A DNA stretch of 64,000 bases. It comes from Candidatus Latescibacterota bacterium (GTDB lineage Bacteria; Latescibacterota; UBA2968). Under the pieces are notes generated by a model, which saw only the letters and a program-made list of their open reading frames with translations, was not told the origin of the DNA and made no database searches. Shown here one piece after another: positions 12,963 through 34,145 of the stretch. Positions within the stretch are counted from its first letter, which is position 1. Each line of letters begins with the position of its first letter. Position numbers and translations under genes: made by a program. The stretch covers positions 384,001-448,000 of the forward strand of contig OZ244960.1 of NCBI GenBank assembly GCA_965222605.1, read 5' to 3'.

Positions 12963-13018
12963 GGTTGAATCTCCTTCTTTCTGCGTACCAGCGCGCGAAA
13001 TGTGGTTTGCAGATGAAC

Positions 13019-16000: not shown

Positions 16001-17677
16001 TGGATCATCGTACCAGAGACGGGTAAAAAAGTAAGTGAGACTCGGGCGGAGAAAGAGTGGACGCGAAGGATCTTCAAGCACAAATTCTTCAAGTTTTCGA
16101 GGGTCGTCTTCAATGAGCAAGATGCTGATTGCGTAGTCAAAGAGAATGTTATGAGAAAAAGCAATACTTTGTCCGGAAGATACCTTTGCCAAAATTTCAT
16201 CACTCAGGAGATTATCCCAAGCTATCTTCCTCACTAGTCTATCGAGGTGAAGATTATCATACACATCTTCCTGCCTGACGGTCAATGACCGTTCCTCTAT
16301 CATCAAACGTGCGACTTTTGTAAGAAGGAACTCGCGGTCATCCGCATTGTTTACCCCCTCAATCCGTCGTTGCCAAAACAGACCGAGTAACTGGACTTCA
16401 GAAAGAATCTGACTAAAATCAGGAACATCCTGGGAGGTCGTTAGAATCTTTTCCAAAAGCCAAAGATTGAACGGGTTAGCAAGGAGGGACTTGAAATCTT
16501 GAGAGCCAGATTCATAGATGGATTCCAGATGTGGAATCTGGTCAAATGCCTGTCGAATCTCGTCTTCATTCAAGGATGGAATTGTGAAATGTCGGCACAA
16601 AATTCCTTCGGTATGGTATTGGTCTAAATCGTTGTCATAAGGACTGTCAAACAGGTCTAAGAGTTCTTGCAATTTTCTTGCGTCATAGGTTCGTACTGTA
16701 ACCACGACATTCCATTTATCCAGTTCTTGAATTGCACGTTTAATCAAGCGTAGAAAGCGTTTGCGCGTCCGTTCATTTCGAGCGGCATCAAAGGCGTCAA
16801 AAAGTAAGGTTGCACATTCGTCTGAGATAGGAACGGATTTCAGTTTTTCTATCAGATCATCGCTGTCTGGTAATGCGTTCGACAAATCTTCTTGCGTACC
16901 ATCTCCGAGTTGATCAATTGACAAAAAAAGACGAGGTGTTTCGGTAGATTTTAGGCTTTGGCAAAGTTCTCTTAGCAAATATGTTTTTCCAATGCCTGGG
17001 CTACCAATAATGACCCCGTTTCCTTGTGAAACAAAGTTCTTCAAGTCATTGAGTAGCTTCTCGCGATTAATTTTTATCGTTGATTTTTGATCTGTACTTC
17101 CCTCCATATATTGGTTTGCCTTTTTTAGCCAATCTAATGGATCCCAAATTTTGCTTTCTTCATCACCAAAATGTTGCTCAAGTATAGTTTCTATTTTTCG
17201 TAATTTTTTTAAAGAGAATCCCCTGATTTCATGCACTAAGTCTTGATAATCACGTATGTCGTTTTCTTTGTCAAAACAAAATTTGCCGTCTATTATTTCC
17301 TTAAATCCTCGTCCTTGATATGTTTTTTGTTTTTTAGTCAAAATATAGACAATCAGATGGTCGAATCTTTTGTACAGCTCGTGAGCAACAAATTTTTCTA
17401 AAGTATCCTTAATTTTCTGACTGTTAGATTCTGCTGTGATTTGGTACGCTATTCTTCTCTTTTCATCACCTAAGTCTATTGCGGGAAAATTAGAACCTTC
17501 AGATATGTTTAAATTTTTCAAATCTGAATGCCCATAAATTTCTGAAAATAATGGAATTAATACATCCTCAGATATCTGATTAATATCTGTCATCCCCATT
17601 TTGTTTGAGATATTAACCTCAGTCACAAACCTTGACATCAATTTACAGATTCTATTTTTAGATTCTTGCAAGTTCAT
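13019..17677 (-). CDS. SMEK domain + STAND NTPase + long helical C-terminus (AVAST/Avs-like antiphage protein, possibly Avs2 type)
   Basis: N-terminal DINQISED...NLN...NFPAIDLGD...AYQITA...KIKDTLEKF (SMEK-like); Walker A GSPGIGKT; Walker B LLFDAFD; VVVTVR; NPFNL; C-terminal ILADHR...LLDIFAKTGW. Confidence 0.8.
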   Translation of the reverse strand: MNLQESKNRICKLMSRFVTEVNISNKMGMTDINQISEDVLIPLFSEIYGHSDLKNLNISEGSNFPAIDLGDEKRRIAYQITAESNSQKIKDTLEKFVAHELYKRFDHLIVYILTKKQKTYQGRGFKEIIDGKFCFDKENDIRDYQDLVHEIRGFSLKKLRKIETILEQHFGDEESKIWDPLDWLKKANQYMEGSTDQKSTIKINREKLLNDLKNFVSQGNGVIIGSPGIGKTYLLRELCQSLKSTETPRLFLSIDQLGDGTQEDLSNALPDSDDLIEKLKSVPISDECATLLFDAFDAARNERTRKRFLRLIKRAIQELDKWNVVVTVRTYDARKLQELLDLFDSPYDNDLDQYHTEGILCRHFTIPSLNEDEIRQAFDQIPHLESIYESGSQDFKSLLANPFNLWLLEKILTTSQDVPDFSQILSEVQLLGLFWQRRIEGVNNADDREFLLTKVARLMIEERSLTVRQEDVYDNLHLDRLVRKIAWDNLLSDEILAKVSSGQSIAFSHNILFDYAISILLIEDDPRKLEEFVLEDPSRPLFLRPSLTYFFTRLWYDDPETFWKAFWYVLPNDQSVHLRLFARLIPTSVIANEARKIRQLAPLLEKLQNGEDVATEAIMRLLQSFRALQIERDALWISFFYQVSVHWHADFAGDLSTLTSEILERATDPENTAIIDTCGEIGRRLFKWVWQEREANSNDWYNRLGSTLAVPLIAKTYGTNVEESRLLLEKVLELTQEDNFPISFLTWLTEHVDKIWIHDPDFVALVYHAVFIHDEISDERTSLSSGPILPLTSTRQQDYSSCQYRLIKHFSNFLQSAPLVATQAAIQSLNFFIIKKHIARHLKEGVKFEDLIQTFEFRGNRTHFVQDNSYIWDETSYRDKPIQIADELFKFIAALASSQDSLSRLDSLLDIFRDEVWVAFFWRRLLKTADQFPKVFVPRLFDLCIAKPIQLGNEVVHELGLFLENAAFEFTPTQLRQIEDIILALPEEATDKEDRKFLEYRRNRLIASIPKDLLQTNDTKKIREEMERIDQVPENKPLVSFTSWSGPYTEEKRLQEQGVDTTTPENQELQRFFEPLDKFKSDWLNDTPTEEATESILPLLQEAYAAIDGNSEVDKEVMDSLWFKLTACVAILSRVADKLETNQFTFCRQLALKGAKHKLPEPDPKRDAQEFTVYSPYPRHEAAQALLRLSIRQLDAEILDAIESLASDPVPSVRMVTAMELSRVYFKMPEKFWHFVEHRAAHETSQTVQKYIYHTLAHVVARKKENEDKTVRIMEKLLKRIPQPIVGLEPSNPFIDLLMWLAISRENSWALKKIKDTFFKDPIRFANSLNSAVSGVLKDYVIPKNLEMPEGYETTQRAITFLERAIDVASNGVQELSKTFKNTEEEEKKLRDIYTVIDGVITYLSFEIAYEKDRSEEPTEKITDELRCRFYNEIKPLMEQVIAFAEGENGVMFAPTAHDFLELLTSCLSCNPKEVLHLAAGVARSSERFGYNLDSLAVAEVVKFVEIILADHREEVRDGQGLEDLLNLLDIFAKTGWSDALRLVWRLDEVFR

Positions 17678-17724
17678 TGAATTAAACCCCGAAGGATTTC
17701 TATAAAATTAATGTATAACAAATT

Positions 17725-20700
17725 TCATCTGCGAATCCCCAACTCCGGCAAGCCCTCAACAATCTCCACAGTCTCCAAACTCACCGTAATCACCTTCCTA
17801 ATCAGTTTGACGATATATTCCGGATCATCTTCTCGATTCGGATCACTGATGATACCACTTCGTTTGTCCTCTTTGACGCGGTATTGATCAATGATCCATT
17901 CCAACGCCGAGCGATTCCCAAGCCGATAGGCATAAGCTTTCGGTGGAACCCCGTCGAGCGTCAGGAAATCGTTGTACACAATCTGCATCTTGTCTTTGGA
18001 GAACCTCATCTTTTCCACGCGCCAGTTGAGAGGCATATCCGGTGTTTCGATAAACGTGAGCGGATATTCGGGCATGTCCTTATAGCCGATGTGGATTTCC
18101 GATAACCGTTGCCCCGCTTTGGCAAAACTCCAAAAGTCTGGTGTGAGTGGAAGGCGCGGTAATTCCCGCTTGAGGTTGGCTTGATACCGCTCCCGATATT
18201 CTGGGTGATGGAGCAGACCGTAAACATAATGAAAGATGTCCCATTTGGTGATTGCATCATCCTGGTAATGCCTGCGAAATTGTTCCAACGCCCAATCGGT
18301 GATATTCTCACGACGATTTTCCCCGTCCTCATCGTAGGTGTAGAAAGAGAAGCATTGGGTTGCATCAAGAGATGTTAGGGATAGACTGGGAATTATGTCT
18401 GTGCAAAAACACCAATAATCAGTGCGTCCTCCAACGCTTGGAACAATAATCACTAAATTTTCCGATTCTGACTCAGAGGTAGGGAAGATGGACGGAAAAA
18501 CATACACGCGCTCGTTCATCATTCGGTCAAAGTAAAGGTTTGATTTCGTAAATGGACGATAGAGAGATGTTCTTACCTTTTCCTGTGAAAAATCAGTAGT
18601 TTTACCTCTTTGCAAGTTTCGTTTAAGTGTTTCGCTCCACTTGATTTTCGCATCATCCGACATCACAAAATCATCTACATTTTCATCTCGGTTCTCCCGG
18701 TGTTGCCAAATATTAATCTGCTCGTTGTAAGTTTGGATTGTCCGCCTCATATTCTTAGTGAGCACATCTCGGTTAAAGTTGTAAGCCCACGCATCTCGGG
18801 AGGTTGCAATCCCGCGACTGTAAGTCTTAAAAATCACATCATCCACCTCACCTTTTGCCGATTTTGCTTCTCTGGATCCCATAGGGATAAAAGTCTCAAA
18901 TTCAGCGTGGAGTCCTTCTGTGAGCCAAGTGTATCGCTGGTCAGGCGTTATTGTTTTCCATTCGATATTTTGGTAATGTTCCTTTGAATCGAGATAGCGA
19001 TATTTGTCCTCTTTCCGCCAGAACTCATCAACACGGGCGTAAAAGATTTTCGCATGAGTCTCTGGTTGGCTGCTCTTTTTAACGAAAAAATTGATACTAA
19101 CCCCGACCTGTATCCCAAAGACATTGTGTGTTGTCCCTGAGAGCTTTGGGTTCTTGCGAACATTCCCACTCAGATCCAGGATATAAATCGCGTCGAACTC
19201 GTCTGCGAGATGTTTCCGCATCCCATCAAAGGCTATGCCATCGAGAAATCCGTTGTTCGTCACAAAGGCGACAACACCTCCATCTCCTATCCGGTCCGAT
19301 GCCCACCGAATCGCCTTCACATAAGGGTCAGAGAGTGCGTTTTTATTGGTCGCCTTTGAATCTTGTGAATATGTTTCCCTTACCCGCATATCCATCGTCT
19401 TATATTTTCTATTCTTGTTGTTGTCATTCTCATTGACCTGTCCAACGTTATAAGGTGGATTGCCGATAACCACAAACATCGGTGTTTCCTTTTGCCGTTC
19501 CACCCTTTCCGCATTCTTCTCCGTGAACAACACCATCTGCTGTGGCTCTGCCAACTCAAAAGTATCAACCAAGCATATCCCTTCAAATGGCAAATAATGC
19601 TCTGTCGCCTCGTAAAATTCGTGCTCAATATTCATTGATGCGATGTAGTACGGCAGGAGCATCACCTCATTGCAGTGAAGGTTGGACGTGTACTTGTGCT
19701 CAAGCGAGGTTTTGCGAATCTCCCGCATAATTCGTACGATGAAATTGCCAGTGCCAACATAAGGGTCAATAATATGCACACCACCATCAGAAAGAGAACG
19801 GTCAAATTCGGTCTGCAAAATGTGCTCAACGCTTTTCACCATAAAATCGACGATGGGTTGCGGTGTATAGACGATACCGTGTGTATCGGCAACCTTGACT
19901 GAAAAGCCTTGAAAAAACTGCTCATAGACGGTATTGAGAAAATGTTGCTTTTGGGAGAAGTCGTTGATCGTCGCTGCGGTGCGTTCAATCACCACATAAA
20001 AACGATCAAGACTTTGGAGAAAATCATCCCGGCTAAAAGACTGAGATGTGAGGGCGTTGATTACAGTCTCAATTTCGCGGGCAATCACATTTCGGTTGGT
20101 AAAATCGGAATTGCTAAAGACGGTTCGGAAAATCCGCTCGGTCAAAAGATGTTGAATAAGCATCTCCTCAACCGCAGCTTCAGAGAGGTTTGGGTTGATA
20201 GACAATCGACATTTTTCGAGGAAATCTGCAAAGGCGGAAGTAAACCGGCTATTGGTCTCGCGCTCCTTCTGAATTAACGCCGCCAATCCGCTCCCTATCT
20301 CAGGAACTATGTCTTTGAACTGCGCGACTGCCTCTTCCCATTCGGCGTATTCTTGCGGACGGTGGGCAAAGAAAGTTTGGAGCGTCTCAATGAGTTGCTT
20401 TGGATCGGTCAGATCGGCGTTGAGCACTTGACGATCATTCTGCCAGAGGATCGCCCGTTGTGGCGTTTGGAACAGGATGTTGTCACGCGGATAACCCGAC
20501 TCAAACTTATGCTGAACTTCGGTTGGCAGATCATCGTGTATATCCTTTGCCTCCCAATAGCCTTGGGGCAACCGAAAATCGTCAATCAACGCCCCATCAA
20601 CCACAATCCGTTTATTTCGGTTGAGGATCATCGAATGTTCGGGAACGAGCGTCCAATCAAACTGCTTCCCACACGATTCGAGCAGCGATTGAAATGCCGA

Positions 20701-20805
20701 ACGCACGGCGGTTTCATGCGTGACGCCGAGCCGATCAAATTGGCCGAGCGATTCATAGTATGCTTTGACGGGCTTGTGGGTGGGTTTTAGGTTGAGTGTT
20801 GGCAT
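17725..20805 (-). CDS. Single-chain restriction-modification enzyme (REase + N6-adenine MTase + type ISP-like specificity domain; no helicase)
   Basis: VDGAL...YWEAKD, GIVYTP, IDPYVGTGNF, GNPPY, SLYRPFTK, LGNRSALEWIIDQY. Confidence 0.88.
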   Translation of the reverse strand: MPTLNLKPTHKPVKAYYESLGQFDRLGVTHETAVRSAFQSLLESCGKQFDWTLVPEHSMILNRNKRIVVDGALIDDFRLPQGYWEAKDIHDDLPTEVQHKFESGYPRDNILFQTPQRAILWQNDRQVLNADLTDPKQLIETLQTFFAHRPQEYAEWEEAVAQFKDIVPEIGSGLAALIQKERETNSRFTSAFADFLEKCRLSINPNLSEAAVEEMLIQHLLTERIFRTVFSNSDFTNRNVIAREIETVINALTSQSFSRDDFLQSLDRFYVVIERTAATINDFSQKQHFLNTVYEQFFQGFSVKVADTHGIVYTPQPIVDFMVKSVEHILQTEFDRSLSDGGVHIIDPYVGTGNFIVRIMREIRKTSLEHKYTSNLHCNEVMLLPYYIASMNIEHEFYEATEHYLPFEGICLVDTFELAEPQQMVLFTEKNAERVERQKETPMFVVIGNPPYNVGQVNENDNNKNRKYKTMDMRVRETYSQDSKATNKNALSDPYVKAIRWASDRIGDGGVVAFVTNNGFLDGIAFDGMRKHLADEFDAIYILDLSGNVRKNPKLSGTTHNVFGIQVGVSINFFVKKSSQPETHAKIFYARVDEFWRKEDKYRYLDSKEHYQNIEWKTITPDQRYTWLTEGLHAEFETFIPMGSREAKSAKGEVDDVIFKTYSRGIATSRDAWAYNFNRDVLTKNMRRTIQTYNEQINIWQHRENRDENVDDFVMSDDAKIKWSETLKRNLQRGKTTDFSQEKVRTSLYRPFTKSNLYFDRMMNERVYVFPSIFPTSESESENLVIIVPSVGGRTDYWCFCTDIIPSLSLTSLDATQCFSFYTYDEDGENRRENITDWALEQFRRHYQDDAITKWDIFHYVYGLLHHPEYRERYQANLKRELPRLPLTPDFWSFAKAGQRLSEIHIGYKDMPEYPLTFIETPDMPLNWRVEKMRFSKDKMQIVYNDFLTLDGVPPKAYAYRLGNRSALEWIIDQYRVKEDKRSGIISDPNREDDPEYIVKLIRKVITVSLETVEIVEGLPELGIRR

Positions 20806-22699: not shown

Positions 22700-22748
22700 A
22701 TAAACAGACACAAAACATCGTATTCGACGCTTTCAAGTGAGGACCCAA

Positions 22749-23528
22749 ATGCTGAAACGCTTTTTTGGTAAAGATGACGAAGGACCAGACAATGGTACAA
22801 CAAAAGAAAGACAAATCCACATCGAAGGGCAAGACGAGCACGTTCAGGAAGCCATGGACCTCCTCGCACAAGAGGATCAAGATGAACTCGACGAAGCCCT
22901 TGACGAAGTTAATGAAACCGTAAGAGAAGCCGCCAGAGCCTCCCTGCGCGACCTGAGACTTATGCAAGAGGGCCACTGTCCATCCTGCGGCCACAAAACA
23001 CTGCGGCAATTTCTCTTTACAACTGTGTGTTCCAGTTGCGGTTGGTTTTCATTCATTTCGCCCGAAGAAGGCAAATCTCACATCCACCTGCAAAGTGGAC
23101 GCACCATCGAATGCGGCACCACATTTGACACCAAAGGCGACTTTGTACTCGGCATCACAAATGGCGTTGTACGCGCCAAAGTCTCAAAAGAAAATGTCGA
23201 ATACATCGAATTTTCCTGGACCGACGAAGAAATCCAGCGCAAACGCGAATCCCGCGCAAAAGAAGAAACGGGAATATGCAGCTGGTGCGAAAAATCGCTC
23301 GCAGATGATAATGATGACAATATCATTGTCTATGCGGCTTTTGGCTCCACCCAGGAGCGCTATGTCTTCTGTTCAAACAAATGCAACGAAGCCTTCCAAA
23401 AACAATATCCCATTCGCATTCACAAAAATTGCTACGAACGCTCCTGCCTCGATTGCGACTTGTGCAACAAACGCTACCTGGGCGAAGACGAGACCTTTCT
23501 CAAATTGCTCGAGCAGGGGAAAGTTTGA
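22749..23528 (+). CDS. Hypothetical multi-zinc-finger protein
   Basis: CPSC...CSSC, CSWC...FCSNKC, CYERSCLDCDLC; GAGGA before ATG 22749. Confidence 0.75.
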   Translation: MLKRFFGKDDEGPDNGTTKERQIHIEGQDEHVQEAMDLLAQEDQDELDEALDEVNETVREAARASLRDLRLMQEGHCPSCGHKTLRQFLFTTVCSSCGWFSFISPEEGKSHIHLQSGRTIECGTTFDTKGDFVLGITNGVVRAKVSKENVEYIEFSWTDEEIQRKRESRAKEETGICSWCEKSLADDNDDNIIVYAAFGSTQERYVFCSNKCNEAFQKQYPIRIHKNCYERSCLDCDLCNKRYLGEDETFLKLLEQGKV

Positions 23529-23551: not shown

Positions 23552-23597
23552 AAAAAATCCATCCCCCATCGCAATAATGCGCGATGGGGGATTTTTT
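23552..23597. terminator. Bidirectional terminator between convergent genes
   Basis: ATCCCCCATCGC...GCGATGGGGGAT with flanking A and T runs. Confidence 0.75.
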
Positions 23598-23632: not shown

Positions 23633-24454
23633 TCACTCCTCTGAGGAAATCACATCCTCTTTGGGAAGGGGGTTCTCAGTGCATATCGACTCTAAGAACG
23701 GATACGATATGTGACTGCGTTTTGCTTCGCGTCTTAAACGAAGTTGATAGAGTTCCCGCACACAACGCGCTTTTGTGGCTTCATCGAGCACAGCGGGAAA
23801 GTGTTGTTGAATATAGTACAGCGCGTAGCCTGTTTCCACCTTAATGGGGCCAATCACCTCACCTATCTTAGCGGCAAATAACAAGGGTGCAACATCATTG
23901 GGTAAGTCACGCCGCCCAAGACGCCCGAGATATCCACTAACAGGGCGCGTGTGTTCATCGAGGGAATATTGACGCGCGAGGGTGTGAAAATCTCGCCCTC
24001 CGTCTCTGATCTGCAGGGCAATCTCTTCGGCAATATCCCGTTCATTGACCAGAATCCAGCATATTTCTCGACGTTCAGACGCCAGTTTCTGGCTTGCAAA
24101 ATGAGCTTGAATTTGCTCAGCGGTGATTTGTGCTTTTAGCCGCTCCTGGAGCATCTGGTATTCAATTTCCCGTGCCATGTCAGTGAAGGTGATATTGCGT
24201 TGTGATAACCAATTTTCCGTATCTTCAACACTTTCCAATCTGTTTTTGTACCGCCACTGGTCTATCCCCTTTTGCAGTTTATCACGAGGAATTTTAATTT
24301 TTTCTTGTTGGGCAATTTGAAAGACCAGACCGCGTTGGGTAAAGAGGTCGTGCAATGTGTCCTTGCCGGTCGCTCGCATTGATTTCACGATATGGGATAA
24401 GCGAATTTGTGTCTCGTTTATTTGAATGATGACGGGATCAATTGAATCAGCCAT
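23633..24454 (-). CDS. PpiC/parvulin-type peptidylprolyl isomerase-like protein
   Basis: WILV...DFHTLARQYSLD...GYLG...GEVIGPIKVETGY. Confidence 0.85.
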   Translation of the reverse strand: MADSIDPVIIQINETQIRLSHIVKSMRATGKDTLHDLFTQRGLVFQIAQQEKIKIPRDKLQKGIDQWRYKNRLESVEDTENWLSQRNITFTDMAREIEYQMLQERLKAQITAEQIQAHFASQKLASERREICWILVNERDIAEEIALQIRDGGRDFHTLARQYSLDEHTRPVSGYLGRLGRRDLPNDVAPLLFAAKIGEVIGPIKVETGYALYYIQQHFPAVLDEATKARCVRELYQLRLRREAKRSHISYPFLESICTENPLPKEDVISSEE

Positions 24455-25774
24455 TTATTCTCTACCCTCTGGCGAAAGCGCAGCCATTTCGCGCAATTGT
24501 CGCAATGGGTTGAGTGCGAGCATCAAAATGGACAGGCGATCTGTTATGATTTCTGCCGTGCCCTTCATGCCGAACATGAACGCTTTTTCCTCGCCGTGTA
24601 CAAGAATGGTCGTTTTCTCCAGATCAATAATTCCTCTAAACACGGTTCCCGAACCCTCATCGCCCATTGCATCAGGTGAAATCTGTCTCAAATAGCCGTG
24701 CTGGATGCCGTAGTCCTGAAATGGAAATGCTTCAAATTTGAGCTTTACCTTTTGTCCGGATGACAGCAGACCCACATCTTTGTTCAAGATCAGGGCTTCG
24801 GCTACAATCGGTGTCGAGGCCGGTGCAATGGTTACCAGTGTCTGGCCTTTATTGACCACTTGACCGGGGGTATTGACCAGAACTTGTGTGACGATTCCCG
24901 ATTCGGGTGCAAGAATCAAATCGATGTCGGCATCAACAGATCGATTAACCGTTTGTTTCGCCTGTTTGAGTCTGATTGCTGCAATGTCATAAGCATTTTG
25001 GAAATTGGCTCGAGTGCGTTCGAGTTCGAGTCGTTCTTCGAGAATTTGGCGTTTTAAGTCTTTTAGGGAAACCTCATAGCGATTGATCTCTGCCATCCGC
25101 GCGGGTAGTTCTGCCAATGCGCTCAGATAGCGAACTTTGGCTTCATTGCGTGCTGCAAGGCTGATGAGTTTTTTGTCGTACAATTTTTGGTTTTGTTCAT
25201 ATTGCTGTTTCAAATGTTCTACTTCTGCGGAGTGTATTTCGATCTCAATGTCGGGGGTCTGGAAAGTTTCTGTGTGATTCTCAAGTGCTTTCCGATAGGT
25301 CTGCATCGCGGTTTGCATGACGCGAACGCGATGCTCAAGCGCGGATATGGTCTCTTTTGCCAAAATTCTTTTTTGTGGCAGGGTTTGTTGCAAATCAAAT
25401 TCCGCTTTTTTGAATGCGATCTCCGCTTGTTCCAATTCGCGGAACTCTTTGAGGGTTTCTTGTGAACGAAGTCTGAATAATGTCTGCCCTTCGGCAATGT
25501 GGTCTCCCGAATGGATGGCGATTTCCTGGATTTCACCAGAACGCGGTGCCTGGATGTTCTGAACTTTTCCCAATGGGACGAGACGAAATGGGGCCGTTGC
25601 GACAATATCGACTTGACCGTACCAGGCCCATGCTATGGCGATGGCAATAAAAAGCAGTAATACATAAATAAGGGCGCGGCTGAAAAAGGGGTGCAATGAC
25701 CCTAAAAACTCGATGGTGCTTTCGGCCAGATCAGTTTCGTGTTCGGGCGGTTTTTCAACCTGGGCTTCAGCCAT
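24455..25774 (-). CDS. HlyD family membrane fusion (adaptor) protein
   Basis: N-terminal TM, IQAPRSG, coiled coil, ILAPESGIV, KLKFEAFPFQDYG, GMKGTAEI. Confidence 0.92.
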   Translation of the reverse strand: MAEAQVEKPPEHETDLAESTIEFLGSLHPFFSRALIYVLLLFIAIAIAWAWYGQVDIVATAPFRLVPLGKVQNIQAPRSGEIQEIAIHSGDHIAEGQTLFRLRSQETLKEFRELEQAEIAFKKAEFDLQQTLPQKRILAKETISALEHRVRVMQTAMQTYRKALENHTETFQTPDIEIEIHSAEVEHLKQQYEQNQKLYDKKLISLAARNEAKVRYLSALAELPARMAEINRYEVSLKDLKRQILEERLELERTRANFQNAYDIAAIRLKQAKQTVNRSVDADIDLILAPESGIVTQVLVNTPGQVVNKGQTLVTIAPASTPIVAEALILNKDVGLLSSGQKVKLKFEAFPFQDYGIQHGYLRQISPDAMGDEGSGTVFRGIIDLEKTTILVHGEEKAFMFGMKGTAEIITDRLSILMLALNPLRQLREMAALSPEGRE

Positions 25775-25785
25775 TGGAATTCCGT

Positions 25786-28761
25786 TTACACAACCTGCAA
25801 TTGTTGTCCCGATAGATTGTAATAAAGTCCTCGTTCTGCGATGAGCGTATCGTGCGTTCCCTGTTCAACGATATTTCCGTCATCCAGTACAAGGATTAAA
25901 TCCGCATCTTTTACCGTGCTCACCCGGTGGGCGATGATAAATGCGGTCTTGCCTTCCAACATAGTGTCTAACCCCTCCTGAATCGCTCGCTCGGACTCTG
26001 TATCCAGAGCATTTGTAGCTTCGTCAAAGATGATAATTTTGGGATCGCCATATAGTGCCCGGGCAATGGACAGGCGTTGCCGCTGACCACCGGAAAGTCC
26101 CACGCCCTGTTCCCGGATTTTGGTTTCATATCCCATTGGCAGGTCTTTGATAAAGTCGTGGGCATACGCGAGTTTGGAAACTTCCATTAAACGGTCCATA
26201 TCGACGTCTTTGACCCCCAGGGCGATATTTTCGGCGATGGTGGCATTGAACATGACGGGTTCTTGCAAAACCATCCCCACCTGACGCCGCAGCCATCCGG
26301 GATCAAATTCGCGCAGGTCTGTGCCATCAAGTGTGACGGATCCCTCTGTTGGATCAAATAGCCGGGGTATGAGTTTTACCAGCGTTGTCTTGCCCGCACC
26401 GCTGCGGCCTACTATGGCTACTTTCTGACCGGGTGATATGTCCAAATTTATATCGCTTAAGACATAAGACTCTGTCGATCCCGATCCATACCGAAAGAAC
26501 ACCTTGTCAAATTTGACGTGTCCCTCTACGTCTGTGAGTTGAACCGAATAGTTGCGATTGCGCGATGACTCGGTTCGCATATCGTAGATGTCGTTTAATC
26601 GGTCCAGTCCCAACTTTGCCAGTTGAATCTCCGGCCACAGGTTAATCAATCCCATAATCGGTCCCAATACCCTGCCACTGAGCATATTGAAAGCGATTAA
26701 TTGACCAACTGATAAGTCGCCCTGAATAACCAGATTCGCGCCATACCAGAGCACGATGGTGCTGCCCAAAGCATTGTTTAACTGTCCAAAAGACCCAAAT
26801 AGCATATTTGTTTTGATTGCGGTAAAACCAATTTTTATTTCCTGGGTCAGGCGTTCTTCCCATAGCCATCGCGTGGATTTTTCGACTGCGAGGGTTTTTA
26901 TGACTTCAATACCGCGCAGGGAATCGATGAGTACGGATGACCATTCCGAGCGGGCGAGAAAAGATCGTTGATTGATGGACTTGAGGATTGGGGTGTAGAT
27001 TAACGTCAGGATAATGCTGAGCGGTATGAACGCCAAAACCCAGAGTGTCAAATGGGTGTGGTAATAGAACATCAGGCCCAGATAGACAAAGATCATGACC
27101 GCATCTAAGACGGCTGAAATAGCCGTTTCTGTCAACAAGCTCCTCAAGTACTGGCTCTCTCGAAATCGCGTCATGATTTCACCGGTTCTGCGGAGGGCGA
27201 AAAATCGCATGGGCAGACGGAGAAGATGATGGTAGATATGCGATAACATCGAGATGCTGATGCGCGCACCCACATATCCAATCAGGTAGTTGCGCAGTGA
27301 TGATGTGGCGATCCGAAATAAGGCGATGATGATCATGCCCATTAGCAGGAGATTGAGCAGGCTGGTATCCTGGTGAACGAGGACTTGATCGAGGATCATC
27401 TGGGTGAACAGGGGTGAGGCAAGGCCAAAGAGATTCAGCACAAGGGAGGCGATCAGGATTTCGGTGAGGATACCGAGATATGGGCGGGCGAGTGGGAAAA
27501 ACCGCCTGAATGATGATTTTCTTCCCCTATATCTCGAGACCTTGTCGGTATATTCGAGTATTAAGGCGAGTTTGGACCATTTGTCTTCGAATTCTTTGCG
27601 GGAAATTTTTCTGCGTCCAAGCGCAGGGTCTGCAATCCATGCGTATTTTGAATTGATCCGGTATAGAACGACAAAGTGATAGCCTTCCCAGTGCGCGATG
27701 AGGGGCAGGTCTCTTTCTCCGATTTCACTGTATCCTATCCGCACGCCGCGCGTTAGAAAGCCCAGGTTTTCAGCGGCTTCGGCAAGTGCAGATAGGGATG
27801 TGCCTTCCCGCGAGACATTGGCCATGTCTCGCAGGCGATTTAATCCGATGGATCGTCCGTAATATTGACAGATCATGCCGAGACAAGCCGCGCCGCAATC
27901 GGTCTCATCGTGTTGCTTGATGTAGGGAAATGTGATGTAGGTTCGCAGTTTTCGAGGGCTTTGATCTGAGATGCTATTTTCAGGCTCGATCTCTATTGTT
28001 TTAATTCGATCATTTTGTGGCACTGTCTCGCGTTGTTCTTCTTGTTCATTCTGATCGGTCTTCTCGAAAACCCGGATGAGTTGGGGTGCGCTTTCAAGCA
28101 CTCTGGCGAGGTCGATGTGCGAAAGGGTGTAGAGCACGACTTCTGTTTCTGTTTCAATAGTGAGTTGATCGGAGTTGCCGCGAAAAAAGTCGCCCGGTTT
28201 TAGTATTTTGAGAGGTTGACCCATCTCTCTCAATTGCAAGGTTCCGCGGCCAATGAGGCAGAGCCTTTTTGCTTCTTCATCTCGCCATACTGTTTTTTCT
28301 TCTGCTACAATAACCTTCCGTTCCAGACATTGGAAAAAGAACTGCATGGCTTCCTGGAGGTTTACGGTGTCCAGTTTCAGAAATTTTGTGAAGTTCCGAT
28401 AGGCGATGTCCCGCACTTGATCAAGCAGGTAAGGGGTCAGTTTCCGATGCTCTGATACGAGGGCGTGAAAGTTGATCTGAGACATTTTCAGCACAGTTGA
28501 GGGTTCAACCGCCCGAACCGTTGCCCTGCGCGGTTTGCCCGTGAGCAATGCGCCTTCTCCGCAATGGTCGCCGGGAAAGAGATAGCTTAGGGTTTGCATC
28601 TGGTCATTGCTGTCTCTCGTTAAAACCCTGAGTTGCCCGGATACGACATAGTAAAAGCAATCCCCCTTGTCGCCTTCATAAAATAAAACCTCTCCGAGAT
28701 TGACCTGCATTTCCTCTGCAGGAGGTCTCAGAGAGGCGTATAGATCGGTTCGTTTTATCAT
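25786..28761 (-). CDS. Peptidase-containing ABC transporter (cNMP-binding domains + C39 peptidase + TMD + NBD)
   Basis: [10 protein letters not shown]...RRATVRA (cNMP); [11 protein letters not shown]...HFVV...IADP (C39 triad intact); GRSGAGKT; LSGGQRQR; FDEAT. Confidence 0.93.
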
Positions 28762-28803
28762 GTTCTCAATAGGGGTTATGTATGAAAGGAATATATGCGA
28801 TTT

Positions 28804-28831
28804 GTAGGGGCGGTGCCCCCGTGCCCGCCCG
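28804..28831 (+). repeat. GTAG-type REP-like palindrome
   Basis: GTAGGGGCGGTGCCCCCGTGCCCGCCCG followed by a T run. Confidence 0.55.
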
Positions 28832-28871
28832 TTCTGATCCTTTTTTTTTGACCCGCTTTGCAGATTGTCTT

Positions 28872-29471
28872 TTACTCAGCTTCAAATAGACCCCACCTTG
28901 AGTCGGGTGAGTCCTTGATTATCGTCTTGTCCGAAAGCAAGACCTGAAATCTGTATCGACTGCCATTAACGGGCATCTGAGCATAGATCGAATAGCAACG
29001 CCGGCAAGCCGTTATCTTGATCTCTGTGTCGCAGGGGACACAGTCCCAAATCCCCATAGGCTTTCTTTTGCATCGCAGGCACTCGATTTGTTCAATCCGG
29101 TTTTTGTTCCGTTCCTGGAATTTCTCCAAATCGCCAGAAGACATGGGGCCTATATACGATACACCTGCAGAGTTGCACACCTTGCAGAACGACATTTCGT
29201 CACCGTCCATCGTTCGCTTTTCGCCCGAAAAGTCATCGTACACCATCAGACAATTCCCACACGCGAAAATGCCCTCCACGTCTGGCTCGCGGTCTTCAAA
29301 ACGTCTGAAGTACGCCAGAATATCAGACTTATCACTATCGGGCAATTGTTCATAAGGCTGCATTTTGGTTCCGCACTCGTGGCAGCAACAGCCAAAGAAA
29401 TTCTTTGCCCATCGGCCACCGATCACCAGGAATACGATAATGAGAATGGTCAAAATAATAAACGCTTCCAC
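28872..29471 (-). CDS. Membrane-anchored protein with six CxxC motifs
   Basis: Hydrophobic N-terminus; CHEC, CGNC, CKVC, CLRC, CVPC, CRRC; GAGGA before GTG start. Confidence 0.75.
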   Translation of the reverse strand: MEAFIILTILIIVFLVIGGRWAKNFFGCCCHECGTKMQPYEQLPDSDKSDILAYFRRFEDREPDVEGIFACGNCLMVYDDFSGEKRTMDGDEMSFCKVCNSAGVSYIGPMSSGDLEKFQERNKNRIEQIECLRCKRKPMGIWDCVPCDTEIKITACRRCYSIYAQMPVNGSRYRFQVLLSDKTIIKDSPDSRWGLFEAE

Positions 29472-29520
29472 AGTCTGTTCCTCATGTCAGTGGTTATTGC
29501 TACGTCCTCTGCCTACGGGT

Positions 29521-29580
29521 TTTATCTTTATCCATCCCTATCCATCTGCGTTCATCTGCGTTCATCTGCGTTCATCTGCG
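29521..29580. repeat. 10-bp tandem repeat (TTCATCTGCG)n
   Basis: Four near-exact units preceded by two degenerate ones. Confidence 0.85.
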
Positions 29581-29583
29581 GAT

Positions 29584-30945
29584 CTATTCAATCAATTCTT
29601 TAGTATCGTGAACGCGAATATCAACTTCAGGCCAGTATTTATTTAGAATATCTATGATGTGATCCTTAGGTCCGACAAAGATCATGATCATATTCTGAGG
29701 TACAAAGAACTTTTCGAGAAAGGTACGCACCTCAGCATCGGTAATCGACTTAGAACCACCTTTGTGAGTTGGAGGATTATAGATGGCTCGATATACCTCA
29801 TTGTCCAGTCTTCGCTGTGGTGTCAACAACTCATGAGCATGAGCATAGACGACATTGCGGCTTTCACGCAATTCTTTTATTTTTTTCCAAAAGCGAGGGT
29901 CGTCGGAAAGTCCTCGGATGAAATCGGATATTTTTGCGATCAGTTCTTCGCTATTCTGTAACTGGGGATCTGCATAAATTTCGAGAAACCTGATATTTTT
30001 TGATGATCGATAATCGCAAGCAGGACTATAGACCAATCCCAACTCTTCTCTAAAATATTTGTAGAGCAAACCTCGAACACCATATCGCCCAAGCGTCATG
30101 GATATCATTGGGGGAATATAATTTGTTTCACCTATACTCCCATAGGGGATCAGCCAATAACAGAAAACATTCTTTAAGTCTGAATAATTCTCAAAGACAA
30201 AAGCCGAAGGACCAAAATAATAATTGGCCTCTGAAGGTGCCAATGAATGCACAAACCCACCTGCCTGTCGCAGCAGTAGGGTCTCCCGTTCTTCTATAAT
30301 TGGACGAAGCATTTTGGCGATCTCGGTGGAATCTCGGTTTGAGATTACCTTGAAAAACACCACTTCTGTTTTCTGAAGCCGCTCATAATATTGCCTGATG
30401 TCCTTTTCAGAAAGGTTTTTCACCGTTTTTAAGGACCTGAGTTTCTTTATGCCTTTTGTTTGTGCAAGTGCAAAATTTCTCATAAGATTAGCGGTATTTC
30501 TCTCCAGATCATTCTGGTAATTAGTCACCTCTCGCTTTTTCACATCTTCCAGATCAGACTCAGCAAACTCGAAGTTGTGTATGAAATCGCGAACTATTTT
30601 TATAGACTCAGCGCAATTCTCGGATAGGGTATAAACGGATACGGTCAGGGATGTTGTGTTGGCAAAGACAGACAAATCAGTCCCTAATACTGCCAGTTGA
30701 TCTATGTACCCTCGCTTGTTTATGCCCTTCCAAATCAACTTTGAGGCTATCTCCGCCAGTCCATTTTGAGAAGGCGGTTCCTGGTTTTTCCCTGCTCCGA
30801 GAAAGACAATATCAATTCTTGTCAATGGCGCGCGTTTGTCCTGGCGATAAAAAATTTGGTGGTTAGAAATCTCTGCATAAGCGGGCAGGATACTACACAG
30901 AGAATACAGCACAAGGCCAAAAGTTACACTCTGGAGTCTATTCAT
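29584..30945 (-). CDS. Exported M16 (insulinase) family protein, non-catalytic partner
   Basis: Signal peptide; no HxxEH; FREELGLVYS; C-terminal IFVGP. Confidence 0.75.
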   Translation of the reverse strand: MNRLQSVTFGLVLYSLCSILPAYAEISNHQIFYRQDKRAPLTRIDIVFLGAGKNQEPPSQNGLAEIASKLIWKGINKRGYIDQLAVLGTDLSVFANTTSLTVSVYTLSENCAESIKIVRDFIHNFEFAESDLEDVKKREVTNYQNDLERNTANLMRNFALAQTKGIKKLRSLKTVKNLSEKDIRQYYERLQKTEVVFFKVISNRDSTEIAKMLRPIIEERETLLLRQAGGFVHSLAPSEANYYFGPSAFVFENYSDLKNVFCYWLIPYGSIGETNYIPPMISMTLGRYGVRGLLYKYFREELGLVYSPACDYRSSKNIRFLEIYADPQLQNSEELIAKISDFIRGLSDDPRFWKKIKELRESRNVVYAHAHELLTPQRRLDNEVYRAIYNPPTHKGGSKSITDAEVRTFLEKFFVPQNMIMIFVGPKDHIIDILNKYWPEVDIRVHDTKELIE

Positions 30946-32401
30946 TTGAGGATAGCCTTTCGGGAGAACTTAATCTTCTTATCCCCCATCCCACCAGCAA
31001 TACAAGACCAGCCAAAACCAATACCATAATCCCATAGTATAACGAGGTTCTCTGAGTTGGTTTTTCCTTTGTTGACACCGTTAGCGAAAGCGTTATGGAA
31101 TTGTCATCTCTCAGGTATTGATCTACCAGGCGCGGGATGTCGTCTCTGCGGGCAGATTTGAGATCTTGTATCAATTTTAGATACAGCAAGGGATCGTTGG
31201 CATGGGCGAATGCCCGCCCGAACTCATAGGCCATGTCTGAGCGGTCGTAAAAGTCGGAATACATTGATTTTAAATGCAAATTTTGGGCCGCAGTAAATTC
31301 ATCCTCTGAGACACCACGCGCCCTGATCTTCTCCAATTCTGTTTGGATAGCGGTCTCGATGGCATCTATGGAAGTGTCGAGCGGCAGGTCTGCCGTGCAA
31401 CTCAGCAAACTAAATCCTTTATAGTGGTTAAGCGATACTCTGAAAACCCTTGCGAGCTTAGAATCAATCACAGAAGACCGCAGGGAATTTGAGGTTTTGG
31501 TCAAAATGCGAGCAAGAATGAACAAGGTCGCATAGTCGCGATGGCCTAAATGGGGGGTGTGCCAACTCTTCCGGAATTTGGCAATAACGAGATCTTTTGA
31601 AGTATCTTTTACTCTTTTTCCGAGTATTTCAGGATTGGGGTATTGCGGAGAAGGCAATTCGCTCGATGATTCGCCTGGTATTTGCTCATTGCCATAAGCT
31701 TCATCCAGTTTGGTCAGGACATGGTCCATATCCACATCGCCAATCACAACGATCAATCTCTTTTGGCGACGCAGGAAATTATCATAGTACGCTTTCAAAT
31801 CATCAGGTTTGAGGTGTTTAATAAAATCTTCAGTGCCAATATATGATGACTGATTTTTACCATGGACTAAACCAAAAAAGCGATTGGTAAATTTTTTGGG
31901 TGGGTTTGCTAAATTACGACTTCTTTCCGTTATTACAATTTTCTTTTGGTTTTCAACGACCGCTTCATTGATTTTTGTATTGTAAAATCTATCGCGGTCT
32001 ATCTCAACTGCGAGATCAAATTTGTCCTTCGGAAATCGCATTCTTAAGCACATATAATGGATAGTTGTAAAGGCATAACTTTGACCTCCATTATCGACGA
32101 TAATCTGGTTGAGTTTTCCTGGCTCATGGCTACCAGTATCTGACATGATATGCTCTAAGAAGTGTATTCTCCCTTGTTCACCTTCTTTTTCGTCTGCCCA
32201 GCCAGCGCAGTACAAGGTATAATATTCAAATGTTGGAATTGTTCTATCTACCACGATAACGGCATCGAGGTTAGGATTGATGGTGTAGTGCTGCGCGATG
32301 AGTTCTTCAGATAATGCGGCTGTGCCAATAAGTTGGTAGGCCGAGCAGGTACTGGACAAGACGCAGGCAAGGAATGAGATGAGAACATAAATTTTTTTCA
32401 T
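30938..32401 (-). CDS. Exported, C-terminally anchored M16 (pitrilysin) zinc peptidase
   Basis: Signal peptide MKKIYVLISFLACVLSSTCSA; HFLEH; IVITER; VVIGDVD; C-terminal TM YYGIMVLVLAGLVLLVGWG. Confidence 0.85.
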   Translation of the reverse strand: MKKIYVLISFLACVLSSTCSAYQLIGTAALSEELIAQHYTINPNLDAVIVVDRTIPTFEYYTLYCAGWADEKEGEQGRIHFLEHIMSDTGSHEPGKLNQIIVDNGGQSYAFTTIHYMCLRMRFPKDKFDLAVEIDRDRFYNTKINEAVVENQKKIVITERSRNLANPPKKFTNRFFGLVHGKNQSSYIGTEDFIKHLKPDDLKAYYDNFLRRQKRLIVVIGDVDMDHVLTKLDEAYGNEQIPGESSSELPSPQYPNPEILGKRVKDTSKDLVIAKFRKSWHTPHLGHRDYATLFILARILTKTSNSLRSSVIDSKLARVFRVSLNHYKGFSLLSCTADLPLDTSIDAIETAIQTELEKIRARGVSEDEFTAAQNLHLKSMYSDFYDRSDMAYEFGRAFAHANDPLLYLKLIQDLKSARRDDIPRLVDQYLRDDNSITLSLTVSTKEKPTQRTSLYYGIMVLVLAGLVLLVGWGIRRLSSPERLSSNE

Positions 32402-32481
32402 ATCTGATACCAGGCAAAGCTGATCGTGGTTGTTTCGTCTATATGTCTGAATACATTCTTGCACTACACAGTATAAAATCT

Positions 32482-32514
32482 GGAGGTTCTTCCAGCAAGC
32501 TTGAAAGAACCTCC
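32482..32514. terminator. Stem-loop just downstream of the cargo gene
   Basis: GGAGGTTCTT...AAGAACCTCC. Confidence 0.6.
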
Positions 32515-32566
32515 TTTTATTTTTGTATTCTTGCGAGCCAGCTTACTCAAAGAGAGGAACCATCAA

Positions 32567-33145
32567 CTATCCATTATCACCTTCCGTACTGTTCTCCTCA
32601 TCGGGCAAACCGCTACCGTCATCATCATCATCATCATTGGCACAATCACCATCACAATTCTCATCATCACAATACTCACAATTCTCATCATCATCTCCAC
32701 AATCCAAAGGGACGGTGCATCCATCTTCCGTGCCGTCATCTGAAAAGTCAAAATCCCAAAAATCCCCCAAATGGTCCTTATCATTGTTTTCACTGTCTGA
32801 CTCTGAGCTACCACCGCCACCACTGCCACCACTGCCACCTAAAATTGGACCAAAATCATTATCGAAAACATAATCAAATTCCTGAGTAAAGGGTTTTCCC
32901 TCAGTATCAAAGGTGCCGCTCTTAGGGTAACAATCAAATGTGTTGCCGCCACATTCTCCAGAGATCTCATCCATACCTGTGGCCCCGTCATCCATCTTGC
33001 CGTCACCCGGCATCGTTATGCTTCCTCCATTCCCTCCTCGAGCCATGTTCATTTCTTGTGGTGAAATGGTCTCAGAGAGAATGGAGAGCGGTTTGCAGGT
33101 AAGTCCCGCGATGGATGTGGTGTGTTCAGAAATATTTTCTGGCAT
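32567..33145 (-). CDS. Acidic Asp/Gly/Cys-rich protein with a double-glycine leader (putative PCAT substrate)
   Basis: AGGAGG RBS; leader ...ISPQEMNMARGG matches L(-12)S(-11)xxE(-8)L(-7)xxI(-4)xGG; eight Cys in the core. Confidence 0.8.
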   Translation of the reverse strand: MPENISEHTTSIAGLTCKPLSILSETISPQEMNMARGGNGGSITMPGDGKMDDGATGMDEISGECGGNTFDCYPKSGTFDTEGKPFTQEFDYVFDNDFGPILGGSGGSGGGGSSESDSENNDKDHLGDFWDFDFSDDGTEDGCTVPLDCGDDDENCEYCDDENCDGDCANDDDDDDGSGLPDEENSTEGDNG

Positions 33146-33260
33146 GATACAACCTCCTGTTAAGGGTTATACCGCTTTTGCGAGCAACAAACGAATGGTG
33201 TACAAATAACTGTTCTCCAAACCAGTTCATTTGCGGTGATTCGATTCGTTCTATATTCAT
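33126..33260 (-). CDS. 44-aa small ORF overlapping the start of the cargo gene
   Basis: GAAAGGAGGT immediately before ATG; MNIERIESPQMNWFGEQLFVHHSFVARKSGITLNRRLYHARKYF*. Confidence 0.35.
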   Translation of the reverse strand: MNIERIESPQMNWFGEQLFVHHSFVARKSGITLNRRLYHARKYF

Positions 33261-33339
33261 ACCTCCTTTCGGGTGTTCTGCGTTATGGGTGAGAGAGGCA
33301 TTCCAAAATCGTCAAAAAACAATCCTCTAAACATTCAAC

Positions 33340-34059
33340 TCAAACATCTTCCGAAAACGACTGAATTTCTCCGCGCATAACTTTTGTGCGGTACTCGGTA
33401 GGAGGTATTCCGTGTATGGTCTTAAAAGCCTCACGCAAACGATTTGACGAAAGAAATCCGCACTCACTTGCAATTTCATAGACGAATATTGAGGGTTTTT
33501 TTATCAAACGCTGTGCCTGTGCAACTCTGATCTCCCGCAATTTTTCCGAGAAAGTCTTGCCCACATGTTTTTTAAACAGCTTGCAACCGTGCGATCTGGA
33601 AAACCCGAAATGGTTCATGAGGTCATCAAAGTTCAGTTCTGGATTGCTGTAATGCTCCTCCAAAAACGACTCCAAACTCCTTTTTATCCAATCTTGTGAA
33701 GGCATGCGTTTCTTAACCTTTGCCAAAAATTTGCCCTTCCTGATCGGTTTATCCAGCACGCCTACAGCACCCAGCTTGAATATTCTTTCCATTAATTCCA
33801 GGCGTCCCATCTCTCCCATGATCAGGACATTTGTTTGAATTTCCTCTACCTTTAGACAAGTCAAAAGAGATATCGCATCGAGGTCTCTTATATCTATGTC
33901 AACCACAGCGAGATCGATCTTCTCGCGTCTCAAAGTTTTAAACCCTGCTACCCCATCTCTCGCCGTGAATACATCGTAAAGTTCATCGCTCAAGTATTCA
34001 CAAAGGGTCGATATAACGCAGCTATCGCGATCTATAATCAGAACTTTCTGCTCATTCAT
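33340..34059 (-). CDS. Response regulator, REC + AraC-type HTH
   Basis: VLIIDRD, DLAVVDID, LDKP; C-terminal IASECGFLSSNRLREAFKTIHGIPPTEYR. Confidence 0.88.
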   Translation of the reverse strand: MNEQKVLIIDRDSCVISTLCEYLSDELYDVFTARDGVAGFKTLRREKIDLAVVDIDIRDLDAISLLTCLKVEEIQTNVLIMGEMGRLELMERIFKLGAVGVLDKPIRKGKFLAKVKKRMPSQDWIKRSLESFLEEHYSNPELNFDDLMNHFGFSRSHGCKLFKKHVGKTFSEKLREIRVAQAQRLIKKPSIFVYEIASECGFLSSNRLREAFKTIHGIPPTEYRTKVMRGEIQSFSEDV

Positions 34060-34105
34060 ATTTTTCCCCATACGCCAAAAAATTTCTACAACCATATCAA
34101 AACAT

Positions 34106-34145
34106 GCACCTTGCATGCCAACAGATATGTGCAACATGTGTGCCA
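34106..34145 (-). promoter_or_regulatory. Sigma-54 -24/-12 promoter(s)
   Basis: TGGCAC-ACATG-TTGC (34131-34145) plus a weaker TGGCAT-GCAAG-GTGC just downstream. Confidence 0.6.

Follow-up and report, generated by a model that had tools for sequence, protein, structure and literature searches.

A candidate double-glycine export locus for mosaic polyanionic proteins, joined to an exported-type M16 protease pair, in an uncultured Latescibacterota genus

A 64,000-nucleotide stretch of a Candidatus Latescibacterota genome (G000:C1:384001-448000, referred to here as the window; the genome is a single contig of 6.34 Mb) carries a locus that very probably removes the leader from a polyanionic protein and exports the remainder. 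Open reading frame (ORF) calls, together with Pfam and NCBIfam searches, place nine elements on the minus strand in a compact unit spanning 34145 to 23561, in line with the co-oriented run that an initial annotation of this DNA had described. In order of transcription these are sigma-54 boxes, a REC-AraC regulator, the putative export substrate (the cargo), two M16 protease subunits (M16A and M16B), a CxxC membrane protein, an exporter with cyclic nucleotide monophosphate (cNMP)-binding, C39 and ATP-binding cassette (ABC) domains, that is, a peptidase-containing ABC transporter (PCAT), a HlyD-type adaptor and a PpiC-type protein, after which comes a terminator. The features are as follows.

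34105-34145, minus strand: two sigma-54-type -24/-12 boxes, upstream of REC-AraC
34130-34145, minus strand: the perfect sigma-54 box, TGGCACACATGTTGCA (TGGCAC-N5-TTGCA)
34105-34120, minus strand: the second sigma-54 box, TGGCATGCAAGGTGCA, with one mismatch
33340-34059, minus strand: REC-AraC regulator, 239 residues (Pfam Response_reg, 1e-15, and HTH_18, 1.8e-16), its ATG most likely at 34059
32567-33145, minus strand: cargo ORF, 192 residues, in no Pfam or NCBIfam family
33032-33145, minus strand: cargo leader, residues 1-38, ending in G37-G38 (14-copy leader alignment and 70 family members)
32567-33031, minus strand: cargo core, 154 residues, predicted to be disordered (composition and AlphaFold2)
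32472-32514, minus strand: candidate RNA hairpin of 13 bp followed by AGAUUUUAUA, terminator- or attenuator-like, between cargo and M16A (20 copies aligned)
30938-32401, minus strand: M16A, active-type M16 subunit, 487 residues (Peptidase_M16, 5e-11, and M16_C, 1.1e-17; HFLEH)
29584-30945, minus strand: M16B, inactive-type M16 subunit (M16, 2.7e-07, and M16_C, 2.5e-11; no HxxEH)
28872-29471, minus strand: CxxC membrane-tethered protein, 199 residues, in no family, with six CxxC pairs and an N-terminal hydrophobic helix
25786-28761, minus strand: cNMP-C39-ABC exporter (PCAT), 991 residues (cNMP_binding, 5.5e-28; Peptidase_C39, 1.5e-40; ABC_membrane, 3.3e-57; ABC_tran, 4.4e-34)
24455-25774, minus strand: HlyD-type type I secretion adaptor (TIGR01843, 213.4 bits, cut-off 208.65)
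23633-24454, minus strand: PpiC-type rotamase-domain protein without export signal (Rotamase, 7.7e-13)
23561-23592, minus strand: strong intrinsic terminator-like hairpin at the operon end (13 pairs, 8 of them G-C, and a T-run)

M16A and M16B overlap by 8 nt, PCAT and HlyD lie 11 nt apart and the PpiC gene abuts HlyD; a further terminator-like hairpin (34557-34523) stands downstream of the MsbA-like ABC genes that precede the locus. The most likely start of M16A is at 32401. That of REC-AraC is placed at 34059, and hence downstream of the sigma-54 boxes, because its homologues align from that residue on. The stretch containing the locus is present in 20 runs from nine studies, and among those listed none is recorded as RNA.

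The core of the window cargo (∼16 kDa) contains 47 acidic residues against 4 basic ones, giving a net charge of -43, and the earlier description of the cargo as an unusual polyanion is well founded. Searching 61 related genomes, we found the first 42 residues of the cargo conserved (67-90%) in paralogues with a differing remainder, all from the same genus. The 38-residue leader can be aligned for 14 copies from nine genomes, with L15-T16-C17-K18-P19-L20 and G37-G38 invariant, and conservation collapses immediately after the Gly-Gly. A profile of the leader has strong matches in eight of the 21 genomes of the genus and no credible match in 147 other genomes of the phylum (two marginal matches, E 0.003 and 0.009), and the leader alignment matched nothing among JGI metagenome contigs. 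A collection of 5.8 billion proteins yielded the leader in 70 distinct clusters at 90% identity, of 126-219 residues and none with a Pfam domain; in 69 of these 70 members an RGG or QGG ends at position 38 or 42. As judged from these searches, the family is limited to one uncultured genus of Latescibacterota and comprises at least 70 distinct proteins. The median core has 142 residues, 41 of them acidic and 4 basic, a net charge of -38 and 3 Cys. The cargo had also been called Cys-rich, which is true of the window copy (9 Cys, 8 of them in the core) and not of the family, given the low core median and a range of 0-8.

The cores are mosaics, in which types of N-terminal part, middle part and C-terminal tail are recombined in varying combinations. 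Contigs of other strains match the window through the leader, depart from it at 33026-33033, the border between leader and core, and rejoin it further on (joints 32521>33026, 32763>33033 and 32760>33027, with sides of 68-73). Two apparent skips of the whole locus in such contigs (23597>34697, side 30, and 28769>34660, side 21) were anchored too weakly and were not used. AlphaFold2 gives the window cargo a mean pLDDT (predicted local distance difference test) of 47 and, from a shallow alignment, a leader helix at residues 29-35 as the sole secondary structure, so that the core is predicted to be disordered. No toxin domain or family is recognisable in the cargo by Pfam or NCBIfam.

One explanation is that the cargo is the precursor of a peptide that is made on ribosomes and modified after translation (RiPP), whose tailoring enzymes lie elsewhere in the genome and install, for instance, cross-links between Cys and Asp/Glu like those of the QhpC subunit. 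We consider this very improbable. By language-model features the nearest Protein Atlas clusters to the cargo are indeed those of the QhpC gamma subunit (score 0.80), and glycosyltransferase genes stand upstream of Gly-Gly peptides in paralogous loci of the genus, but one third of shuffled proteins reach 0.80 too. Moreover, radical SAM, LanM, YcaO and ATP-grasp domains are all absent from the locus and from the 26 flanking ORFs scanned, as the initial annotation had stated for the locus itself, the Cys content of the core varies from 0 to 8, and cores of 100-180 residues are far above the usual size of a RiPP core.

The exporter supplies a peptidase suited to this leader. The best solved match of its C39 domain is LahT150 (6mpz, E 1.2e-21), and the Cys, His and Asp are conserved in that alignment and in one to PCAT1, although the protein scores under the equivalog cut-offs of TIGR01193, TIGR03796 and TIGR01846. 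Conservation of the leader and its Gly-Gly, the evidence from the family and the conserved C39 residues together give good support to the cleavage after G38 and ABC export that had been proposed for a PCAT/HlyD pair here, with both steps predicted from sequence. Seven genes for TolC-like OEP channels lie elsewhere in the genome and none in the locus. The PpiC-type protein resembles TIGR04500, a putative peptide maturation protein, over residues 9-240 at 68.6 bits, far under the cut-off of 180. The initial annotation held that cNMP-PCAT/HlyD/PpiC triads occur in cyanobacteria; a search for homologues of the PpiC-type protein returned same-genus proteins only. Between species the exporter genes are 92-94% identical. 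An exporter of this type (type 1, at least 80% identity) is full-length in six genomes (G000, twice, and G001, G002, G008, G011 and G015), partial in G019, where residues 1-912 of 991 align, and truncated or broken in G020, G016 and G010.

Two elements could govern expression of the unit. The number of sigma-54 boxes in the window as a whole is not above chance (4 found, 2.7 expected), yet a 16-mer identical to the perfect box is found upstream of the REC-AraC genes of three related modules (two in L019, one in L020). The second element, the hairpin between cargo and M16A, is paired in 97.3% of 260 cells across 20 aligned copies, with compensatory changes in 3 of its 13 pairs. The U-G pairs retained on the sense strand point to an RNA element, in its simplest form a leaky terminator; a palindromic DNA site for a protein is less likely, given that those pairs are kept. 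The hairpin stands before M16A even at loci without a cargo gene. Elsewhere in the window (57213-62932), a second perfect sigma-54 box (60704-60719, plus strand) lies upstream of the gene for a 715-residue leucine-rich-repeat protein, which is divergent from that of a sigma-54 activator with Reg_prop/Y_Y_Y sensor repeats (57213-60425).

We compared 20-kb stretches around such loci (L numbers) in related genomes (G numbers). REC-AraC, cargo, M16A, M16B and CxxC genes recur as a module, present in up to three tandem copies that are followed by one PCAT-HlyD-PpiC set. The neighbourhood search that had been proposed as a check on the locus thus reveals a recurring cassette: 11 of 14 cargo genes are directly upstream of an M16A gene, and the remaining three belong to the same modules, two in a tandem cargo array before M16A and one before a degraded M16 pair. 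The window genome itself contains a second copy of the system, L017 (G000:C1:746747-758249), with PCAT, HlyD and PpiC proteins 93, 93 and 89% identical and a different cargo core; a DDE transposase lies between its hairpin and M16A and its CxxC gene is split in two. L017 is a locus in decay.

The two M16 proteins appear to form a heterodimer of the type with one active and one inactive M16B-peptidase subunit. HFLEH is present in all 27 copies of M16A and HxxEH in none of the 28 copies of M16B. The best solved relative of M16A is the 'zinc peptidase active subunit' 3amj_C (E 7.4e-18), while M16B matches the 'zinc peptidase inactive subunit' 3amj_B (E 4.2e-4), and the similarity matrices of the two subunits agree (Mantel r 0.79, p 0.0002). 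Both have N-terminal hydrophobic segments with AxA-type sites, and M16A has in addition a C-terminal membrane anchor, features that place the pair outside the cytoplasm by prediction. Identity between species is 57-90% for M16A and 57-89% for M16B. The M16A tree has two well-supported clades, with cargo genes beside two of nine members of clade I (the window copy included) and nine of 18 of clade II. The idea that cargo-linked M16B proteins are more basic than orphans was rejected, there being no difference (pI of at least 8 in 9 of 11 and 12 of 17, respectively).

Beyond the modules, all 21 genomes of the genus have at least one further cNMP-PCAT/HlyD/PpiC triad, in which the PCAT is ∼57% identical to that of the window and which is preceded by other Gly-Gly-type peptides and glycosyltransferase genes. 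The gap between peptide and exporter contains nothing, a CAAX/Rce1-type peptidase (L054 and L055) or other metallopeptidase sets. In L052 it holds a tetratricopeptide repeat protein, a DUF3267 zincin and a protein distantly resembling CxxC (63 columns aligned, hhalign probability 91%). In L051 (G007:C1:2394000-2413999, positions 7326-13729) a basic (pI 9.7) Gly-Gly-type cargo of 136 residues is followed by a distant M16 pair (24 and 21% identity) and a type-2 cNMP-PCAT, meaning that the order of cargo, M16 pair and PCAT arose or was kept with quite different cargo chemistry. Metallopeptidase genes, be they of the CAAX, zincin or M16 kind, thus recur in these loci in the position between cargo and exporter. 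A paralogous triad of the window genome (G000:C1:4904573-4913384; ∼57, 50 and 40% identity) is preceded by two genes for glycosyltransferases and by a pair of small acidic ORFs, one of them with '...ANTSGG' ahead of an acidic core of 35 residues; an M16 pair is absent.

What, then, does the M16 pair do at the locus? One answer is maturation, in which the heterodimer would trim or cut the acidic pro-protein, once freed of its leader and exported, into an active product such as a signal, a matrix component or a metal-binding peptide, and M16 pairs without a cargo gene would either remain from cassettes since lost or act on cargo produced elsewhere. It would account for every one of the 14 cargo genes being in a module closed by an M16 pair or by what is left of one (11 stand directly upstream of M16A), and for the distant pair that separates a different Gly-Gly cargo from its paralogous cNMP-PCAT at L051. 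Precedents are at hand in the heteromeric M16 proteases PttP1/PttP2, described as removing class III lanthipeptide leaders (PMC10885120), and in a CAAX protease that acts in processing at a Gly-Gly peptide locus, according to PMC9298176. Cargo C-terminus remnants upstream of two intact orphan M16 pairs (L029 and L030) mark some orphans as secondary, and a protease that reads a generic feature would fit the absence of co-variation between M16 and cargo described below. Against this, 13 of the 21 genomes of the genus keep the M16 family without any leader-family gene, a cargo-less set is under purifying selection in G004, a sister genus has the pair without cargo, a cargo exported in one step by a type I system would not meet a periplasmic protease, and no conserved internal cleavage motif stood out by eye in the mosaic cores. 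On balance we find maturation rather doubtful.

The distribution of the downstream genes deserves closer description. M16A genes occur in every one of the 21 genomes, at one to five copies each, and leader genes in eight. A trio of M16A, M16B and CxxC genes without cargo or type-1 exporter is found in G004, in G014 (two trios) and at L036, L037, L040 and L041. The window trio is orthologous to that of G004 (90, 89 and 98% identity, in the same place), which sits between two MsbA-like ABC genes and a 263-residue zinc-ribbon gene with no cargo, regulator or exporter. This cargo-less order (ABC, ABC, M16A, M16B, CxxC, zinc ribbon) is syntenic in G004, G014, G017, G007 and G011; REC-AraC with cargo, and PCAT-HlyD-PpiC, are indels around the trio. 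In the same five genomes the 263-residue gene directly follows the CxxC gene and is 94-96% conserved, and it therefore marks the ancestral edge of the trio; its counterpart in the window (22737-23528, plus strand) encodes a protein of 263 residues with an acidic N-terminus and several CxxC pairs and is convergent with the operon. Between the window and G004 the ratio of non-synonymous to synonymous substitution (dN/dS) is 0.21 for M16A, 0.22 for M16B and 0.05 for CxxC, and 0.11 for the flanks. Such low values suggest that the G004 trio has been maintained without a cargo of its own.

At L037 and L038 (10-16 kb), beside the syntenic trio, a REC-AraC gene is followed by a different HlyD-like gene and a 571-residue ABC exporter without a C39 domain. 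The REC-AraC protein of L038 is 89% identical to that of the window; it may be that the regulator belongs by origin to this site, not to the cargo.

Judged by these distributions, the M16 pair with its Zn-ribbon protein is a unit older and wider than the cargo. Given this, the purifying selection on the cargo-less trio, the cargo-less pair of the sister genus, and an M16 phylogeny and similarity that do not track cargo type, the part of the initial annotation that saw a dedicated processing system does not stand; the metal-binding or signalling nature that it suggested for the cargo is neither strengthened nor weakened by these results. A second answer to the question above follows the same facts further, and holds that cassettes and exporter insert beside a housekeeping M16 pair through the recombination-prone hairpin region, the cargo being no substrate of the pair. 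The orthology of the window trio to a cargo-less one, with cargo and exporter sets as indels around it, the hairpin before M16A at cargo-less loci and the lack of M16-cargo co-variation are all as expected if neighbourhood has no functional meaning. With only one to five M16 pairs per genome, however, it is hard to place 14 of 14 cargo genes beside one by chance; the order of cargo, M16 pair and PCAT recurs with a distantly related pair in L051, and the operon is tightly spaced with a single terminator at its end. We regard this second answer as improbable.

We tentatively favour a third, namely that the locus produces a bacteriocin-like, polymorphic secreted effector by type I export, and that a periplasmic M16 heterodimer degrades stray or incoming cargo. 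In such a system expression would be set by a sigma-54 promoter that drives the REC-AraC regulator, and the leaky hairpin after the cargo gene would keep cargo mRNA abundant and machinery mRNA scarce, a pattern like that of bacteriocin operons. The cNMP-gated exporter would cut the precursor after G38 with its C39 domain and, together with HlyD and a TolC-like channel from an unlinked gene, would move the 154-residue core outside in one step. The M16A/M16B heterodimer would reside in the periplasm, tethered to the inner membrane, and cargo cassettes would have been grafted onto this older, housekeeping-type module. By degrading disordered polyanion that reaches the periplasm, be it by leakage or by entry, the heterodimer would provide protease-based self-protection, kept by non-producers too, and the locus as a whole would act in competition between strains in the manner of a bacteriocin. 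The maintained orphan trios, the position of the genes directly after the cargo and the exported location of the pair, whereas leader cleavage would be cytoplasmic, argue for the protective role. So do the metallopeptidases found in the corresponding slot of paralogous cNMP-PCAT loci, some CAAX proteases being reported to confer immunity to bacteriocins (PMC9298176). The polymorphic mosaic cores, the patchy distribution and the decay (broken exporters, cargo remnants, and an insertion sequence and a split CxxC gene in L017), which are typical of competition loci, argue for the competitive one.

Several observations weigh against this effector-and-protection reading. How similar the M16 proteins are to each other bears no relation to how similar their adjacent cores are (M16A, Mantel r 0.04 and p 0.34; M16B, r -0.05 and p 0.60), albeit over 11 pairs and with low power, and the window cargo type adjoins a clade-I M16 gene here and a clade-II one in G020. 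Since dS between window and G004 is only 0.24, the loss of cargo in G004 may be recent. One M16 pair of this family (43-51% identity) is also retained in a sister genus of the same order, where a MatE gene comes next and cargo, CxxC and PCAT genes are absent, so that the pair has an ancestral job independent of cargo. Immunity is usually specific, and we know of no bacteriocin that is a disordered polyanionic protein; no toxic principle is recognisable in the cargo and the M16 pair seems to lack cargo specificity. Finally, the CAAX parallel cuts both ways, in that SilX, as presented in PMC9298176, acts in peptide processing and not in immunity.

The CxxC protein is a putative accessory of the system. 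Its six CxxC pairs are conserved in an alignment of 21 sequences and would form three putative zinc ribbons, in a domain that is probably cytoplasmic to judge from the basic residues after the helix. The model is confident (pLDDT 88.8, predicted TM-score 0.80), yet fold searches returned generic zinc ribbons only and no PDB match (best Foldseek E 0.64; best Z 2.6 in a wide VIA-align search). The family is rare, with 100 representatives (E of 0.001 or less) among 1.84 billion, and its nearest clusters in the Protein Atlas are unnamed ones at 0.85, a chance level. It occurs in 18 of 20 genomes of the genus, at 65-98% identity between species. A 6-row alignment matched 15 loci in the genome collection, 14 of them of the same genus, and homologues outside the genus (L025, L026 and L045) have no M16 or PCAT gene nearby. 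A predicted complex of the CxxC domain (residues 27-199) with the cargo leader gave a score of 0.01 and a mark of 0.32, values that speak neither for nor against an interaction.

The export core is of a known kind. As in PCAT1, LahT and ComA, the PCAT or ABC transporter maturation and secretion proteins, a C39 domain with Cys, His and Asp shares one chain with ABC membrane and ATPase domains, and the substrate leader ends in Gly-Gly. The locus differs in the N-terminal cNMP-binding domain of its exporter, in a leader of 38 residues and in disordered, polyanionic cores of 100-180 residues in place of short cationic or hydrophobic peptides. Type I secretion systems are matched by the HlyD-family adaptor in the locus and the OEP channel genes elsewhere in the genome. 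Class II microcins and colicin V (CvaAB-TolC) likewise combine a PCAT, a HlyD-type adaptor and an unlinked outer-membrane channel in a Gram-negative cell, and their structural gene is followed by one or more protective genes, much as the cargo gene is followed by candidate ones. Such microcins stay below about 10 kDa and come with small immunity proteins dedicated to them, whereas our core is of ∼16 kDa with a net charge of -43 and is followed by an M16 pair and a Zn-ribbon protein, with no small immunity-type gene.

AlbE/AlbF of subtilosin provide a further case of an M16 heterodimer in RiPP systems. The heterodimeric M16B enzymes, Sphingomonas 3AMJ and PttP1/PttP2 (PMC10885120), share with the locus family an HxxEH subunit paired with an inactive one, overlapping genes and strong co-variation of subunits; both locus subunits, on the other hand, carry predicted export signals and M16A a predicted membrane anchor, and whereas PttP1/PttP2 remove a RiPP leader, the leader here has its own C39 peptidase. 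Abi/CAAX proteases (CPBP, PF02517) offer a metallopeptidase gene between Gly-Gly peptide gene and exporter, the very family that fills this slot at L054 and L055. They are intramembrane enzymes unrelated to M16, and PMC9298176 reports bacteriocin immunity for some and processing for others. Polymorphic toxin systems, as outlined in the accessible part of PMC3482391, resemble the cargo family in a conserved N-terminal trafficking part, a recombining C-terminal part, patchy distribution and orphan downstream modules; the locus differs in having no known toxin domain and no co-varying cognate immunity gene (11 pairs, low power). That part of PMC3482391 does not mention M16, insulinase or double-glycine. 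Secreted Gly-Gly-motif proteins that are not antibiotics are exemplified by EbfG1-4 of Synechococcus elongatus, which depend on the peptidase-transporter PteB and have roles such as biofilm formation (PMC4997328, in part); compared by description only, that system is from a different phylum, and the same portion of the paper reports neither M16 pair nor Zn-ribbon protein.

In a literature search of limited coverage, no paper dealt with a Gly-Gly/PCAT locus that has an acidic cargo or an exported M16 pair, and within that coverage we found no described system that includes this class of cargo, an exported heterodimer of M16 proteins or the accessory with Zn ribbons. With some reserve, we consider it possible that the locus represents an undescribed class of secreted effectors, in which mosaic disordered polyanions (at least 70 variants) leave by a cyclic-nucleotide-gated PCAT and are accompanied by an M16 protection (or processing) module and a new membrane accessory with three zinc ribbons. 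If so, the locus would stand for a novel form of competition between strains, or of handling a host, for instance by capture of cations or cationic peptides. Double-glycine export is textbook knowledge for short peptides and a few small proteins, and the present substrates are a large, fast-recombining family of polyanions in a phylum without cultured members. Should the M16 pair act on the cargo, a periplasmic M16B enzyme of bacteria, a type whose bacterial substrates are mostly unknown, would gain a defined natural substrate, and a PCAT system would for the first time be seen to involve protection by M16 proteases or processing by them outside the cytoplasm. With the Zn-ribbon protein comes a confidently predicted fold without a solved relative, and the 38-residue leader with its invariant motifs can serve as a handle in searches for more members.

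The genes flanking the locus include a type ISP restriction enzyme, a STAND NTPase, an Opp importer, tRNA synthetases, leucine-rich-repeat proteins and transposases. PADLOC models of anti-phage systems gave no system match, with solely generic ATPase and cNMP-domain matches on PCAT. A defence-type cluster at 11548-20805 (minus strand) encodes the type ISP restriction-modification enzyme, a 1552-residue SMEK/NACHT STAND NTPase, a DUF2806 protein and a PIN-domain protein. The stretch at 50162-55297 is rich in mobile elements, with three transposase genes or fragments (IS4/5-type, Mutator-type and DDE_5) around the gene for a 780-residue protein with leucine-rich repeats and a dockerin.

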